Of a DNA stretch of 56,820 bases, positions 11,001 through 36,289 are shown piece after piece. The notes below the pieces were generated by a model. It worked only from the letters and a program-made list of their open reading frames with translations. It searched no databases and had not been told where the DNA came from. The DNA comes from Stylophora pistillata. Its lineage: Eukaryota. Position 1 is the first letter of the stretch, and every line of letters begins with the position of its first letter. The stretch spans positions 173,775 through 230,594 of the forward strand of contig NW_019217881.1 of NCBI RefSeq assembly GCF_002571385.2. The letters are read 5' to 3'. The position numbers and the translations under genes are program-made.

Positions 11001-14000
11001 GGGAGAAAGAGGAAGAGGTAAAGGATGAAGAATTGAAGGGGACTGAAAGAATGAGTAGAAGTATGAGGACGGAGGGGTGGAAGAAAATGAGGAGTATTGA
11101 GAAAAAAGATAACGAAGAAGAGGAGAAGGAGGAGGAAGAAAAGTGGGAAAAGAGTGAAGGAGGAGAAATAGAAAAGGGGAAGGAGAGAAAGGAGAATTGA
11201 CAGGGGGAACAGGTAGAAGTGGTGGAAGGAGAAAAAGGAAGGAGAAGAGTGGAGAGCTAAGAGTGGAGAGCTAAGAGTGGAGAACTAGGAGGGAGAGGTA
11301 GAGAAAGAAGGAGAGAAGGGAAGGAGAAAAGGGAATATTGGAGAATTAAGGGGGAGAGGTATATATAAAAGGGGAGAGAGGAAGAGGAATAGGATGAAGA
11401 AGAATGAAGAAGAAAAAGGATGGAGANNNNNNNNNNNNNNNNNNNNNNNNNNNNNNNNNNNNNNNNNNNNNNNNNNNNNNNNNNNNNNNNNNNNNNNNNN
11501 NNNNNNNNNNNNNNNNNNNNNNNNNNNNNNNNNNNNNNNNNNNNNNNNNNNNNNNNNNNNNNNNNNNNNNNNNNNNNNNNNNNNNNNNNNAAGAGGAGAA
11601 GAAGAGCAAGAGGGTGAGGATGAGGAAGGGGAAGGAGAAGTGAAAGAAGAAGAAGAAAAAGAAGAGGAAGAGGGAGAAGAAGAAGAAGAGGGGGTGAAAG
11701 AGGAAGATGAAGAGGAAGACAAAGAAGAGGAAAAGGACGTAGAAGAGAAAAGAGGAAGAGAAATAGGAAGAAGAAAAGGAAGAAGAAGAGGAGGAGGAAG
11801 AAGGGGAGGTTGAGGAAGAGGAAGAAGTGAGGCATAAAGGTAGGTACTTTATTCTTACTAACCCAGTTATGTTGTCCACCCTCATGATCTCGTATTTGCC
11901 ATGATTGATTAGGTTCCCTCTGGTTGCGATAAAAAGTATTTCATCTCCACGTTGGATTTTGGCAGCATCCTCACAGTTGTTTAACACGACGCTTTTTGAG
12001 TCAGTAGACTTCACCTCCCATGATATCATTACTTGCGTGCAGATGTCGAGGGTTTCATCGTTGCATAACACTAAAATCGACGGCGGAAGACAACAATGTT
12101 GGATCGGGTACCACTTATACTCAAGAACGGCTGACACTACAGACATTAATACTGAATAACGGTCAACATAAACTCACGCAACGACACAAACAAGTCATAT
12201 ATACTTGTCGTCCATAATGTAAGCAAACCAAGAGTTGTATAGAAAGTGAGGGTGAGAGGAAAAAGAGGAGGAAAGCTAACGACGATCTCTCATTCTTTTC
12301 CTACTTACAATCTTCACAGTTTTTTCCATGCAGGTTCTTAAATGGACAGTGACATTGGTAATCGTCTTTGTCGTAAATCGGCTGACAAGTGCCGCCATTT
12401 CTGCATGGATTTGACATACACGGCGTCTGAAAAGAAAGGAGCGGAAATAAGTGACAACTAAGTAACAACTGAAATTAAATTTCGATCAGATATACATCAA
12501 CTTATATTCCATATCGAAAAACATTATCTCCTTGGCAGCGTGATTTGAATTTTTGAACTTACACTTTCTAGTTACTTTGTGGTTTACTTTACGGAGATCT
12601 GTATCCTGTACTATTCGTTTACATACAAATTGAAAGGAACATTCATCCATAGTTAAGAAATCGATAACCATTAGAATCGCAGTGTCCTTGTGGGGAAGGA
12701 GCTTCCAAAGCTGAAATAGCTTATAGTGCAACTGTACCACCTTTCACTGAGAATTCTAAGTGCAGCAATTCTCAAATTGCTGCACTTAGTAGGTTGAAAA
12801 AACAACTCATTTCGCAGAGACCAATTTGAAAGCGCGTCTAAATCCTGCTGTAGATGCAAGTAATCAGAATGGTGTTTAGTAACCTTGTAACATTTAGAGT
12901 CATCCGCAAACATAGCCAGTGTTGCACTGAAAACAACGTTAGGCATGTCATTAACAAATAGTGCAGCAATTTGAGAATTTATAAGAAGCGCCTTAGTCCT
13001 CCCCGCAGCTATGTTTTAAATGGTATTAATAGGGGCCTGAAGAAACCCCGACGGCGACGGCAACGAGGACGTGGAAAAACAAGAGATCTAATTGGCAGAA
13101 CAATAGCTCAGCACGTGCGTTTTGAAACTTTGTACATTTCTTAGCCGTCCTATGCAAAATTTAGTCTCCCTCGCAGCCGTTTTTAGTCTCGTCACGCAAC
13201 GCTTCTCCCCACAAACGTTCTCCCCAGAAGCGTTGCGTGACGAGACTAAAAACGGCTGCGAGGGAGACTAATGCAAAACAATAACGTGAAATCGCCAAAA
13301 TTTGCGTCGTCTGTGAACCGAAACCGCGACGGCAAATTATTTTAACTTCCATTTGGAACTCAACGGCTACTTTATACGTCATGCTGAAGTTGAGCTGTGG
13401 CGCTGTATGAGACAGTAAGCTCCTGCAGCCATTTTTGAAATTCTAACTAAGAGTAGAAATTCATTTTTCAATCGAAGTCTTCCTTGGCGTCGCCGTCCTG
13501 GTTTCTCAAGGTCCCTAATGTGGAGGTTGTCACGGCCGAAAAAGATCTTGGTATTATGATTGCAAATGACACCTCTTGGAAAGATCACTTAGTCATGATT
13601 GTAGCTATAGCTAATAGGATGCTTGGATTTTTCAAAAGGAACTGCACTGGTATTGTTGGTAGTACGGCGCTTTTGCGTCTTTACTACTCTTTAGTGCGCT
13701 CTCATTTTTGTTTTTGCTCTCAGTTATGGGCCCCGAAGTCAAGTAGCAGCAATTTTATTCTTGTTGAAAACATGCAAAGGAGAGCCACTCGATTTATCTT
13801 AAGGAATAGTAACCTATGTTGAAAGGCTCGTTTAATCAAGCTTAAGTTATTACCTCTAAGTTATTGGTTAGAATATCTTGACTTAGTTTTCTTTTTCAAG
13901 TGCCGTCATGGGCTTATATATTTCACTCGTGAACTGATTTAGTTATTTTCTTTTCTAAAGGGCAACACGCGCCGGGCTTCATCAGGGCTGCATGCATTTA

Positions 14001-25501: not shown

Positions 25502-25569
<68 letters not shown>

Positions 25570-30400: not shown

Positions 30401-31609
30401 TTAATCCTTGGTATCGGAAGAGTGTTAATGTAATAATGATTCAACAGCCTTAGCTGATATTAGGTATAAGAGCAACATTTTCTTTCAACATAATCCTTCG
30501 CATGTATTTTCTCTCTTCATTCGTAAACTCAATTTCAAAAGTCGATTTTTATCACCGTTTACACTGATTTAACAAATATGATTAGCATTTTGTACTCTTA
30601 CTAAAGTAATATCATACAGTCAGTCGCCTCAAATTAACGATTTAGCCTTGTTTGAATATTGTTTTGTTTATTCATTGGGTACAATTTGTTTACGTTTTAT
30701 AAGTTAGCAGAGTCAACTGCATGGCCTAAGCGATCGCAAGACTATAATTCTGATTATTTAGCAATAAAAGGATGAATAAAATGATTACTAGGCCCTTCGA
30801 GGTAACAATTTAGCAACAAGGTTGGCTGCAATTTTTGGTGAAAAATAATTGTGTTAGCCAGCTGATTAATTAGTGGTTCACATCGAGGCACGTATTCTAA
30901 ACAGTTGGATTTCCCACTGTTATTAACTCTCTTCAGGTCAATATCTAAAATCTCTGAATCTCTGGAAGTGTTGTAGACGAGTTAAACGAGTAAATATATT
31001 ACGAATCAAACGTTATTGAATTTTCATGTTATAATTATTTTTTGGATTTTATTGTAACTCTATGAGCTTAATAAGAAATTATTGGACGAGGTTGAGCGTG
31101 ATATTATGAATCATCAAAACCGAGGTCTGAGTTGTCTGCCGGAGCCGATGGCTGAGGAACAAAACACAGACACGAAGTTTGATAATTCATGATATCATTC
31201 GAAAAACGAATTCAATAATAGTTTTATTATATATTTTAGACAATCTGCTTGCTTGCAAAAAAGGTACTTATCTGATGCAAAAATGGCTCTATTTCAAATG
31301 GTGCAGATAACACTGATAAGCCTCATCAAAAACTGCAAAAACCATCGGAAAACAAGGTACAATAATAAGATCTTTGCCTGTATAAAGTATATAGTAAAGT
31401 AGACCAAGCCTTCAGAGCATTCTACCAGTAATTCGAAGTCTTTTTAGTTGTTGAAAATAACGTTACATTTAGAAAAATTGTACGTTATAGAAACCTGGGC
31501 AGTAGAGGTACTCATACAAACTCTTTTTGTGACACAGAAAACATGTATAGGCGATGACGGCACGTTATTTTCTATAGCAGTCGACTTTTGTTTACCTTAT
31601 TATTGTTAA

Positions 31610-32203
31610 ATTGACTTATTATGAAAAATCTGACTAGTCGAGCGGAGCATTCAATCAATAATTGTTTAATAATACATTCTGGAAGCGTTCAACCATTTTT
31701 AGTGTCTGTATGAGTTTGCAAACGCTTGAAAATACTACACAGACTAGGGGCTTGGAAACTACGCAGACTTCGAACTAAACAGGATGAATGCAATATCCGC
31801 TGCAGATATTGGATTTAGCATGTTGACCTCACAGGCCATTGCAGTGGCGGATCCAGGGGGAAGGTCCGGGGAGTCCGGACTACCCCCCCCCCCGCTTATC
31901 AGACCTGACGTTTACAACTTTGACTGAAATTCTTACATTGACAGGATCGTATGTAACACTTTTTACTGGCTGATTTTTTTTAATGAATCCAAGTAAACGG
32001 TAAGTGGCCAAGTAATTATAAAGTGCAATCACTACTGGTGGGAGGGGGTGTGGGGGGTGTGAGAGACAAGTAATTTGCCCCGGTCCAACAGTCCTTTCTG
32101 AACCAAATTTTGGACCCCCCCAGTCAAAAATTGCTGGATCCGCCCTTGCATTGTATATCGATTGCATGCTCTTGACCAATCAGATTTTTCATAGTAAGTC
32201 TAA
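31610..32203. mobile_element. TIR element nested upstream of the recombinase ORF
   Basis: ttgacttattatgaaaaatctgactagtcgag..gagcattcaatc / gattgcatgctcttgaccaatcagatttttcatagtaagtcta inverted arms. Confidence 0.6.
31842..32148. mobile_element. hAT-like MITE with 5-bp TSD (hAT5-type)
   Basis: CAGTGGCGGATCCAG / CTGGATCCGCCCTTG termini; CATTG at 31837-31841 and 32149-32153. Confidence 0.75.
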
Positions 32204-32304
32204 TGTGTAATGATATACAATATCGCGTGAAGTTGACATGATAAATCCAGTATCTGACGCGGATATTGCATTTATCATGTTTCTCACTCAGAGAGAAACT
32301 CAAA

Positions 32305-33423
32305 ATGGCTGAACGCTTCGCCTCTGTTTCTGCGGAGGATTTAAAACTTTGGATTGAAGATAAAGATTCAAAAAACACTAAGAGAACAACAAAAACAAGT
32401 GTAAAGATTCTGAATGATTATTTGACGGAGAACAACTTGGTAGAACCACAAGATAAAACTGCTTTAGCCAATGTTCTGAAGAAATTATACGCCGAGGCTA
32501 GGAAAATTGACGGCAGCCCGTACTCAAAAAGTTCCATGAATTCTTTACGATTTGGACTCAACAGGCATTTCAAGGCAAAAGGAACAGACATTATCAAAGA
32601 CCCAGAATTCGTCGAGGCAAATAAAGTGTTTCTAGCGAGGTGTGTCGATTTAAAACGGCAGGGTTTGGCGAAGGTTGAACACAAACCCGCTATTTTAGCA
32701 AACGACCTTCGAAAACTGTACGAGTGTGGAGTTTTTAACTTAGATGATCCCAGAACACTTCAAAACAAAGTCTTTTTCGAGATGATAATGTACTTTTGCC
32801 ACCGCGGCCGGCAAAACCTCAGGGAACTGAAAATAAAAGACTTTTCATTCACAAGAGATGGCAAAGGCGCTCGATATGCGTGCAAAACCGGCGATGAGTT
32901 GACAAAGAACAACAGAGAGGACGAAGTAGTCTCTGAAGGTGAAATGATGTTCGAAAAAGCTGGACCTCACTGTCCCGTTGCTTCTTTGGAACTCTATATA
33001 AAACACCTCAATCCCAAGAATGATTTTTTGTTCCAAAGGCCAAAGAAAGGAAGTAAAATCGGAGTTGACGATGTGTGTTTTGATAATATGGCTGTTGGTG
33101 AGCGCACGCTCGCCGAGAAAATGAAATATATCTCTAAAGAAGCAGAATTGTCAAAGGTTTATACAAATCATTCAATAAGAGCCACTGCAGCTACAGCTTT
33201 GGATAAGTGTTGGCATGAAGCGGGCCACATCATGGCTGATAGTGGCCACCAAAGTGAGCGAAGTATACAGAGCTACTGCAAAACAGACACTGACACCAAA
33301 ATCATTCATATCGTGTTTGTAAATTTGCCCGAGTGTCGCCCTGCGGTTGAAGAAGATCAAGATTTCAGAAACAAACTTAGATGGCAAAAAGACTCTGGAA
33401 TAGCAAGGGGATTTACAGTGTAA
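32305..33423 (+). CDS. Crypton tyrosine recombinase (DUF3504, KCTD1/ZMYM/QRICH1-related), about 372 aa
   Basis: Intronless ORF with SKNTKRTT, YAEARK.DG.PYSKSS, HRGRQNLREL, ELTKN, CPVASLELY, YTNHSIRATA and SGHQSERSIQSY; catalytic R, K, HxxR, H, Y all present. Confidence 0.9.
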   Translation: MAERFASVSAEDLKLWIEDKDSKNTKRTTKTSVKILNDYLTENNLVEPQDKTALANVLKKLYAEARKIDGSPYSKSSMNSLRFGLNRHFKAKGTDIIKDPEFVEANKVFLARCVDLKRQGLAKVEHKPAILANDLRKLYECGVFNLDDPRTLQNKVFFEMIMYFCHRGRQNLRELKIKDFSFTRDGKGARYACKTGDELTKNNREDEVVSEGEMMFEKAGPHCPVASLELYIKHLNPKNDFLFQRPKKGSKIGVDDVCFDNMAVGERTLAEKMKYISKEAELSKVYTNHSIRATAATALDKCWHEAGHIMADSGHQSERSIQSYCKTDTDTKIIHIVFVNLPECRPAVEEDQDFRNKLRWQKDSGIARGFTV

Positions 33424-33960
33424 ACTGTGACTAGGGATCACACTTACAACATCTCGTATTATTATACATAGACTTACTAGTTCGAGAGTGTTTAATAAAT
33501 GTTTAATAGCATGTGGAGTTGAGATTATAATCCAATATCTGCAGTTAATATCGTACTTATATGTCGAGTTCAAAATCTAGCTGGTTTCCAAGCCGCTCGT
33601 CCATGTGTTGTTCTCAAAATTTTTCAAACTCAGAGAGAGAAGTGTCTTCCTTTGCAGAATGTTTGAAAATGTATAATAAAATTACCGGTTTTCCCATGAT
33701 ATCATGATTTATCAAAACTCGTGTCTATGTTGTCCACCTCAGCCTTTGGCTTCAGGCTTCGGTTTTCATAAATCATATCAAACCCAACCTCATCCAAAAA
33801 CTGTTTAATATCATGCTCAGCCTCATCTAATAACTGCTTATCGTTGATGAAGAGTTATGCTTGAAAAGCTTGAAATTACTAATAAAGCTTGAATTCATTA
33901 ACTAAAGTTGGATAATGTATTTTGGATTTTTAGCCATTTATAAGATGCGATTGTTTTATT

Positions 33961-34328
33961 AGGGACTTTAAGCAGTCAGTACGGCAACGCCACGGAAGAC
34001 CTCGGTTAAAAAATGAGTTTCTACTTTTAGTTAGAATTTCGAAAATGGCTGCATGTGTTTACCGTCTCATAGGGTGCCACACCTCAAACTCAACATAACG
34101 CATAAAAGTAGCGTTGAGATCCAAATGTAAATTAAAATAATTTGCCGCTGCGGTTTCGCTTCGCAGACGACGCAAATTTTGGTGATTTCACGTTGTTGTT
34201 TTGTAAAAGACGGCTAAGAAATGTACAAAGTTTTAAAACTCACGTGCTGGGCTATTGCTCTGCCAATTAAATCAATTGTTTTTCCACGTTCTCGTTGACG
34301 TAGCCGTCGTGGTTTGCTTAAAGTCCCT
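33961..34328. mobile_element. AGGG-ended MITE with 3-bp TSD (same family as 13031-13516)
   Basis: AGGGACTTTAAGCA / TGCTTAAAGTCCCT termini; ATT on both sides. Confidence 0.85.
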
Positions 34329-36289
34329 ATTGTCTCATCAACGGCAGTAAGTTATATTTGCAAAATGATTACATCTTTCACTCCACAAAACGGGAATAAA
34401 AAATTAAACAGACCATAAACAAAAGCATTATGCTTAATTGGCTTCAACGTTTACCCCACAGAGACATACGCAACTGTGTAACGGAAACCACCGTCACCTG
34501 TTACTGAGGTTACATTAAACGACACTTGTCCACGTCAGCGTTTTTTTGTTCCAAGATGTAATTTTCCTTAATTTTTTCCCGTTTCAATTTCATTCTGATC
34601 AAAGTCACAAATAAATTGTGCGTCCAAATGAATGAGAATGATCGTGAAGTAATACAATTCTGAGAACGTTAACGTTTTCGAATCGATCCGTTTTTGTCAT
34701 AAAACACAGTCGTTTTCAAGTGTTTTAGTGCGGACGGAAGGCCAAAACGCATCGAAAAGTATCCGTTTTTAAATGAAAACGCATTAGTGTGTGGACAGGG
34801 TCTGAGATATCTCTACAGTTGAGAAAGGAAGGGCACTTATAAGACGAGATAAACCCAGATTGTAAGAGCACAAACATTGATTAAATCCGGAATTGAGCAA
34901 GATGACGGCCATACCTTCCACATGACCTTCGGATTTGAAGAACGCCCGAATATGTAACAACTTTGGCGAAATTAAATTGACGCTTACCGATTAAATACTA
35001 ATTGTTAATATTTCATCGTACAATCTAATGGACCCGAGCATGAAAAGAAAATGTAAGTTAACAAACTGATACAATTGAACAAACCAGTATCAATCGTTAT
35101 GGTAAATATGTTGTGTTATGTAAATAACAACAAGTGATGACGTAGACGTTGAGCAAAGCACTTGAGAAGCACTTAAGGAAAAAATACAGCTGAACTCCTT
35201 TGTTTTTATATAAAGCATGACCGCCAAGAAATTATTTCAATGTCAAATGAGGTTTAATATCTAATTGAGAATTATTTTGGTATTTGTGAAGTTTCCTAAA
35301 TTTTAATCAGTATAAATGTTTTCTTGTTGATGTGTGGCCCTTCAAGAATTCACCTAAAATTGAAACTTTTCAAACATCCGTCGAACCCTTTTATCGCTAT
35401 CTGGGCAGTTGGAATTACGTCAAGAAAGAATGTTATCCAATCAAGATTGCGACAAAACAAAGGAGCATTTTGTTTCCTAATAAAAATAATAAAGCCTTCT
35501 CCGCCAAACTTGATTAATCTTCTTTGTTTGAAAGCGATCAATGAATCTCAACAACCAACAGAAATGTGGGTGAAAGATCGCTTCTAGTGAGTTCAGGGAA
35601 TTTCAAACATTTGTGTTGTATTTCAAATTACAGAATATACTTTTTCATCGAGGTTTGGTGAACTTTTGTCTGTTTTCCAGAAGTTGAAAAAATAATCAGT
35701 ACTTCCTTTGTACATATTTTTACACCTCCGCTAATGGCCACATTAAAACTTGCGAAGTCTAATACAGCCTTAAGTAGATATCTACCCCCACAGAGGTGAT
35801 TACAGCCACTGTTCGCATCATTTGGTTTACGGAAAATAACTAAATATTTGCCATTTAGTTATGTAAAATAAATTCTCGCAAACTCTGGTACCTTCGAGTT
35901 TTCAACTGTTCGGAAATGTCGTTCACTGACTACTTAAAATTATGGACAAATGCAGTCTTGCGCGAGAACAGTCGGTACACATTTTGACACCTTTTGAACA
36001 AAGTACAATGCGTTGTTTTGTCATTATTATACACGTGGTATTTAATACAGCTTTGAGTTACCTATCGTTGATGTCTACAAAGTCTCCTCGTCAGCATAAG
36101 TACCTCAAAACCGAGTTTTCTAAATGACTTTGGCATCCCTGATTAATACGTTGCTTAACAGTGTTGTTTGTTATTCACGATTTGGAGCCAAAATGTTGCG
36201 GTGAAAGCCGCAATCCACGGAGTGTGGGAGTACCTCTGAATGTCTCTCATATCGGTCTTATTCTACTGTCCTGTCACTTTAAAGTGGAA

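Follow-up and report, generated by a model that had tools for sequence, protein, structure and literature searches.

A scrambled Crypton locus in Stylophora pistillata and the end structure it suggests for animal Cryptons

Cryptons are DNA transposons with a gene for a tyrosine recombinase (YR). For animal Cryptons, the available part of the survey by Kojima and Jurka (2011, PMC3212892) reports that no terminal repeats, either direct or inverted, were found, and in the accessible portion of its supplement 1 the termini of CryptonA are entered as ‘n.d.’. According to the part of a 2026 review that is available (PMC13565253), Crypton transposition lacks experimental demonstration. Here we analyze a Crypton locus of the coral Stylophora pistillata. 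The window, that is, the whole stretch analyzed, spans 56,820 nucleotides (nt) of RefSeq assembly GCF_002571385.2 (contig NW_019217881.1, positions 173,775 to 230,594), and all positions below are counted from its first letter. An earlier note, made from the letters of the window, had taken positions 31071..33841 for one Crypton bounded by palindromic terminal inverted repeats (TIRs). Judged by sequence comparison, the locus instead holds an old Crypton copy that an inversion has split, and two other members of the same family lie within it or next to it. It is a scrambled copy, yet it points to a real, testable end structure of animal Cryptons.

We collected copies from the same genome by protein search and by hairpin search, and set their 5' ends by motif anchoring. 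The order within the family is 5' terminus, leader, YR open reading frame (ORF) or a fragment of it, internal site, long hairpin and 3' end, with the hairpin at the 3' end only. The hairpin is linked to other copies of the ORF, as the earlier note supposed: 8 of the 10 ORF-fragment loci from the protein search carry it downstream, and so do 12 of 14 overall (four of the 14 were found via the hairpin itself). In alignments of the copies the two termini are sharply defined, and the hairpins are 115-190 nt long and reach the terminus. The family is dispersed and multicopy, with non-autonomous derivatives; an element with its single ORF measures ~2 kb (L072). No reverse transcriptase (RT) or RNase H ORF was found between the element ends. 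A DNA search of the genome with the 3' untranslated region (UTR) from the window matched only the window itself. Such searches undercount copies, because one ORF-bearing copy, L061, holds this 3' UTR at 73% and was missed.

If the 3' end of the element is joined to its 5' end and the last 2 nt of the element are dropped, the reverse complement of the product is what stands at the hairpin base. We tested this internal copy of the junction in four families that are unrelated in sequence: that of the window and three others of the same genome that lie next to more distant YR genes. In copies shorter than 700 nt (13, 22, 37 and 19 in the four families), the family's own junction motif matched the interior at a median of 20, 25, 23 and 24 of 26 positions, compared with 13-18 across families. 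The match was best with exactly 2 terminal nt dropped in all four families, and in the window family 7 of 13 copies exceeded the maximum of 650 shuffles. Moreover, the 5' end and the internal site covary in differing ORF-bearing loci drawn from the same genome and from metagenome contigs (L006, L018, L069, L070, L072, L074, L079, L081 and L090).

A comparable arrangement is described for Helitron2 (PMC3627910, available part), where a 5' terminal repeat recurs in inverted form in the 3' subterminal region, immediately upstream of a hairpin. The ends analyzed here might thus be Helitron2-like and be moved in trans by an HUH transposase, with the YR as a passenger or resolvase; the absence of a target-site duplication (TSD), described below, would also agree with this. 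We regard such an origin as very improbable. The YR is the sole ORF between the ends in several unrelated families, the end sequence tracks the YR family, and the hairpins, at their length, extend to the terminus itself. No RepHel ORF was found between the ends, a result that concerns the elements themselves and not a genome-wide search for RepHel elements with these ends.

The two strands of the hairpin differ at its tip. The top strand reads TC, stem, a loop of TNC type, stem and TC, and the bottom strand presents GA/GA with a loop of GNA type. Both GA/GA pairs and loops of the GNA kind make DNA hairpins more stable. The top-strand motif is present in 11/17, 21/33 and 5/15 copies of three families, compared with 1, 1 and 0 in the reverse orientation, and in 8 of 11 other ORF-linked hairpins (none reversed). 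By computed folding energy, the bottom strand is preferred in three families (10/11, 22/22 and 33/37 copies). The palindrome axis itself is a mismatched, unpaired loop.

To define the insertion product, we compared 101 rows with both ends (some of them duplicates) with paralogous sites among the fetched loci. Nine rows had an empty paralogous site, and seven of these, representing five different targets and three families, gave an offset of -2. Insertion therefore leaves no TSD, and the 2 nt are part of the element; in this comparison the absence of a TSD covers three sister families only. At the window element, the lack of a TSD reported earlier was borne out. The element boundary and the inferred cut lie at the hairpin base, and insertion is clean. 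Past the 3' end, the target looks like the element's own first 3-4 bases, whereas the 5' flank is at most A/T-biased. Targets are dispersed over many sites, and at six distinct loci (7 of the 101 rows) the element runs straight into the start of another such element. As a separate observation, window position 13378 is the empty paralogue of the L170 insertion.

The ORF of the window runs without a stop from ATG 32305 to the stop codon at 33421-33423 (plus strand) and encodes 372 residues. It matches Pfam DUF3504 above the cut-off (32.7 bits versus 29.7) and Phage_integrase weakly; the label CryptonA-type rests on DUF3504 and the host. All six catalytic-type residues (R167, K201, H289, R292, H315 and Y324) are kept, in agreement with the earlier note, and the majority residue stands at these positions in 83, 78, 82, 85, 80 and 76 of 90 relatives, respectively. 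Judged by pattern and fold rather than by residue-level superposition, the six would form the catalytic set. The AlphaFold model of the protein (predicted local distance difference test score 86.8) has Cre and Xer as its best structural matches, with Cre first (Foldseek E 2e-10; Z 19.0, root-mean-square deviation (rmsd) 10.0, 288 residues aligned); QRICH1 is also among the matches (Z 14.6). A profile search of PDB sequences returned no match under E 0.04, its top rows being at chance level.

Taking these features together, we consider it probable, by analogy and from the sequences, that this Crypton family moves as a folded DNA strand presenting a site like integron attC. The folding DNA would be either an extruded cruciform or one strand, most likely the bottom strand, and in it the internal site would pair with both termini. 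These would be brought together and the element excised as a circle; there, the junction would form a duplex site for the recombinase, in which 2 nt bulge out unpaired at the cut. The YR would cut beside this bulge, at the base of the single 3' hairpin, and one strand would be exchanged with a short one-sided genomic target; replication would complete the insertion, as in attC x attI recombination. The single-strand and cruciform forms appear indistinguishable on present evidence. The earlier intuition that a hairpin or cruciform is the substrate seems right in this respect, while its protelomerase-like processing at the axis does not agree with a cut at the hairpin base.

Several observations weigh against the folded-strand reading. 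Circle, single strand and cleavage were not observed, and contigs cannot reveal them; likewise, neither a circle junction nor an un-inverted joint was present in contigs of eight runs, which is uninformative as rare forms drop out of contigs. In the window family, 6 of the 13 copies do not exceed the shuffle maximum in the junction match, and the 900 nt upstream at L012, L017, L019 and L020 yielded no 5' match. The strict tip motif occurs in 0 of 17 old, decayed copies of the window family (it is present in their majority sequence), and a fourth family is not biased to the bottom strand in folding (4/19). Two of the nine empty-site rows, both from the rearranged tandem L138, gave other offsets, and none of the nine comes from the family of the window itself, for which no clean empty site was found. 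Finally, integron integrase scores lower than Cre against the ORF model (Z 13.2, rmsd 8.9, 258 residues aligned, versus Z 19.0).

The Cre-like fold would also suit a classical route, in which a double-stranded circle recombines through a plain duplex junction, the internal site serves as an accessory or second binding site or in inversion or resolution, and the hairpin acts in transcription or replication. A duplex circle is the standing proposal for Cryptons in the available parts of PMC3212892 and PMC13565253. RNA contigs that end in or near the right hairpin of the window, where DNA contigs continue, agree weakly with a role of the hairpin in transcription, and a reaction at the internal site could have produced the fold-back copy at L180 (one such copy among the 30 loci of its family). 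We nevertheless consider the duplex route rather unlikely. In all four families the internal site falls short of the junction by 2 nt and so is ill-suited to duplex-duplex exchange, target likeness is merely 3-4 nt on one side, and the strand-asymmetric tip is left unexplained.

The topology of the ends has a further parallel in DIRS elements, whose internal complementary region (ICR) is complementary to both ends (PMC6681497, available part). A DIRS-like cycle would have the transcript reverse-transcribed in trans, the cDNA ends splinted by the internal region and the circle integrated by the YR, and poly(A) RNA contigs do cover the ORF region. This cycle is quite improbable for an element of ~2 kb with one ORF and no RT (L072). 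The tip motif is of a DNA type and lies on the non-coding strand, and a CCAAT-type box lies within the 5' end, so the transcript would likely lack the terminus.

A single hairpin per element is among the grounds for the folded-strand reading. We now return to the structure of the locus, which contains two hairpins in inverted orientation. The features are as follows.

31072..31250, minus strand: 3' terminal hairpin of the ORF-bearing copy, with terminus at 31072 and internal junction copy at ~31218-31240; displaced by the inversion, 11% from the family majority
31251..31524, minus strand: coding 3' end and 3' UTR of the ORF-bearing copy; in L061 collinear directly after the counterpart of window 33301
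31525..31599, no strand assigned: former 5' flank, host DNA inside the inversion, with no match in the fetched loci; left breakpoint ~31525
31600..31660, plus strand: 5' terminus of the ORF-bearing copy with the CCAAT-type box region, interrupted at ~31657
31657..32213, minus strand: non-autonomous member of the same family nested here, with its 5' terminus at 32213 and collinear with L048
31842..32148, no strand assigned: high-copy (by contig depth) miniature inverted-repeat transposable element (MITE) that sits in the nested copy; its TIRs are 15 bp long and it has a 5-bp target duplication
32214..32304, plus strand: remaining 5' leader of the ORF-bearing copy, in which positions 32236-32280 form a short palindrome
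32305..33301, plus strand: Crypton tyrosine recombinase, residues 1-332, with R167, K201, H289, R292, H315 and Y324
33302..33458, plus strand: host DNA past the right inversion breakpoint, source of the foreign 40-residue tail and the stop at 33421-33423
33459..33840, plus strand: separate full-length non-autonomous copy of 382 bp, 5' terminus at 33459, degraded 3' hairpin at ~33665-33840 and 30-nt duplication at ~33776-33805

The family homology breaks at 33301 and resumes on the opposite strand from ~31525. L061 aligns to window 33215-33301 and then continues unbroken to the reverse of 31531-31380; therefore, the window copy has been cut by an inversion (~31525-33301). Microhomology of 8-9 nt is present at the two breakpoints. 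It follows that the left hairpin is the ORF-bearing copy's own tail, flipped upstream, while the right hairpin terminates the separate short copy 33459-33840, which aligns over its full length with the majority sequence of 13 short copies at 16% divergence. The nested copy 31657..32213 has its hairpin deleted just past the internal junction copy; the MITE within it, a nesting that the earlier note had recognized, was confirmed against uninterrupted family sequence. The ORF-bearing copy of the window probably no longer moves.

Much of what had been read at the two borders is correct. The outer coordinates fall within 1 nt of two genuine 3' termini (31072 and 33840). Aligned over 190 columns, the inverted hairpin segments at 31063-31248 and 33654-33819 agree at 69% (E 6e-15), and both fold: the left one with z -3.85 (0/200 shuffles as good), the right one more weakly with z -2.34 (6/200 shuffles as good). 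The right one is indeed degraded and partly duplicated, having lost 12 nt of one arm and gained a 30-nt degraded repeat of its own terminus. What does not stand is that these ~160-bp palindromic repeats are the ends of one element. We rejected a TIR-bounded element, as the window pair derives from two copies, none of 16 copies retaining both ends showed a hairpin near the 5' end, and a hairpin lies upstream of just 1 of 24 5' termini, that of L061. The hairpins are thus not set within TIRs, of which there are none.

The exception at L061 has its own explanation. This copy lies within the hairpin of an oppositely oriented sibling, and the remainder of the sibling's hairpin follows the 3' end of L061. 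L067, missed by the motif, has a left joint identical to that of L061, and its 3' side does not confirm insertion into a sibling hairpin. A minor subfamily with two hairpins (L061 and L067) was considered and set aside, since L061 is explained by insertion into the hairpin of its sibling. As an observation in its own right, these two ORF-bearing copies (G000:C4 and G000:C52, respectively) start at the same point inside an inverted sibling hairpin, which is likely an insertion hot spot that mimics TIRs.

The same evidence bears on the mechanism proposed earlier, in which one element with palindromic TIRs is resolved, as by a protelomerase, into covalently closed hairpins. Two inverted hairpins do flank the ORF, L061 and L067 carry an inverted hairpin at the 5' end, and L180 provides a fold-back copy. 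Against it, the window hairpins come from two copies, a 5' hairpin is missing from all or nearly all copies by the counts above, and the 3' flank of L061 carries on the interrupted hairpin of its sibling. Because the boundary and cut lie at the hairpin base and the axis is a mismatched loop, we find this route hardly credible. No protelomerase was among the 50 structural matches of the ORF model listed or in the Foldseek rows, a result that does not exclude the family beyond that list.

The inversion also explains the C-terminus of the ORF product. A foreign tail of 40 residues after K332 matches no relative outside the alleles of the window locus, and stands in place of a native tail of ~66 residues in the closest whole relative, P0144. 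P0144 and P0005 are relatives with a naturally open recombinase ORF. Read from its sequence, the window ORF is a Crypton-type YR with a full catalytic set, but not a whole Crypton gene. A public S. pistillata protein identical to it is named ‘KIAA1958-like’. Conserved positions carry non-conservative changes (R166H, with R in 84 of 90 relatives; G303W, with G in 78 of 90; R307G; V312D), and such radical changes sit near the active site.

The open frame had earlier been taken as a possible sign of early domestication, that is, of an ORF kept by host selection since the element was immobilised. There is no stop or frameshift across 332 codons, and the dN/dS ratio (non-synonymous to synonymous substitution rate) of the ORF against the family majority is 0.21-0.22, compared with 0.51-1.27 for 12 sibling copies; divergence is 0.03-0.04 at 0-fold sites and 0.07-0.16 at 4-fold sites. 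The inverted form is present in 6/6 further sequencing runs and in a 28-member protein cluster of the ORF; the runs holding the locus DNA represent one organism and coral metagenomes. RNA contigs cover ~32175-33820 in X8, X13, X17 and X18 (three studies) and in X15 (presumed to be RNA). This gives a weak hint that the ORF region is transcribed; X8 also covers upstream DNA, and contig depth was not used as an expression level.

Other observations point away from host selection. In three-way comparisons with siblings, non-coding sites on the ORF branch also have low divergence (0.05-0.08 versus 0.06-0.13); therefore, the ORF copy may just be younger, and the signal may stem partly from the mobile phase. 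Of 12 non-independent trios, one had a difference between 0-fold and non-coding sites at p<0.05. Among the contig variants listed, at least 13 are non-synonymous and at least 6 synonymous (pN/pS, the corresponding ratio for polymorphisms, 0.56; p 0.25 versus neutrality), one being a stop at codon 332 and another R169Q, and in allele P0123 the frame changes upstream of H315 and Y324. The radical changes near the active site point the same way, and among 120 proteins listed there was no orthologue from another species with the same tail. The open frame and the low dN/dS of about 0.2 stand, while damaged alleles and low non-coding divergence leave domestication a possibility that we consider doubtful.

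Several further features of these families were observed in passing. Many ORF-fragment copies (L009, L030, L032, L044, L046 and L050) exit the ORF at the position of window 32886 and jump to the 3' end; by their shared joint they may represent a once-mobile internal-deletion subfamily. Paired short copies of one family lie 5' to 5' in opposite orientation at L128, L134 and L151. In the fold-back copy at L180 (1442-1840, G000:C235), the hairpin is followed by ~115 nt of inverted interior and a restart, which can be a template switch, a recombination product or an assembly artefact; it was seen at 1 of 30 loci of its family and in none of the 33 and 25 hairpins of two other families. Recombination by inversion between the junction and the internal site was rejected, as no direct product was found. 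The short palindrome before the start codon (window 32236-32280) has a counterpart in L072 (2832-2892) that is 98% perfect over 61 nt, and a second short palindrome upstream of the start codon also occurs in L079, L082 and L087. Elsewhere, the window carries copies of 305 nt and 573 nt of two younger hairpin families of like design, with 5' ends at 25569 and 22890 (both on the minus strand). To the right of the element, at 33960-34329, lies a very high-copy MITE with 15-bp perfect TIRs, a second, interrupted copy of which is at ~13028-13519.

The proposed layout names a substrate, a strand and a cut point, so that the question is reducible to an oligonucleotide assay with an intact recombinase of the family. 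The end rule should help to annotate many unclassified hairpin repeats in corals, and the locus is a caution that nested and inverted copies mimic TIRs. Since insertion is free of duplication and occurs at a target of 3-4 nt, the recombinase could serve as a tool. In our literature search we did not find this layout described for Cryptons; Repbase Reports, the texts of Repbase and Dfam entries and subscription papers lay outside the search and may describe the hairpin. Nor does the literature searched describe a folded-strand route for a YR DNA transposon of eukaryotes.

Among known systems, CryptonA as presented in the available part of PMC3212892 agrees with the element in having a single YR/DUF3504 ORF, no extra C-terminal domain, no RT and no TSD, and also in its abundant non-autonomous derivatives and cnidarian host. 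It differs in that the window families have a 3' hairpin and an internal inverted copy of the junction. The domesticated DUF3504 genes (ZMYM, QRICH1 and KIAA1958) share the domain family; in contrast to them, the window ORF lies within element ends as a single exon, keeps the catalytic set and has no orthologue found. Helitron2 (PMC3627910, in the part available) is alike in placing an inverted subterminal copy of the 5' terminal repeat beside a 3' hairpin, whereas the Crypton has a YR instead of RepHel and a far longer hairpin that includes the terminus. The Vibrio SE elements, in the accessible part of PMC9345347, are YR elements that make a one-strand circle; unlike the Crypton, they are bacterial, with four genes and two YRs, and the likeness noted here concerns the circle. 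DIRS-1, from the available parts of PMC6681497 and PMC13465315, is a YR element whose ICR is an internal segment complementary to both termini. The Crypton, however, is without RT/RNase H and long inverted terminal repeats, and its 5' end pairs over merely 12-24 nt.

The integron attC x attI system (PMC2727003, available part) shares with the Crypton a YR and a 3'-terminal imperfect palindrome, of which each unit has one. In both, unpaired bases lie near the cut in the folded strand (for the Crypton, in a computed fold only), sites are poorly conserved, likeness to the target is one-sided and head-to-tail arrays occur. The Crypton is nevertheless eukaryotic, encodes its own YR, uses many insertion sites and has a 2-nt bulge at the cut; its protein is of the DUF3504 type and no closer to IntI than to Cre, and its targets are dispersed rather than set at an attI platform, so that it is not a member of the integron system. 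Whether the likeness runs deeper we judge to be evenly poised: animal Cryptons may be the eukaryotic counterparts of integron cassettes, self-mobile units whose YR excises and inserts a folded single strand. On that reading, and with the same balance of opinion for each, the internal mirror of the junction would be a splint and the 2-nt bulge the mark for the cut, and the internal site of Cryptons would be a possible origin of the internal complementary region of DIRS elements.

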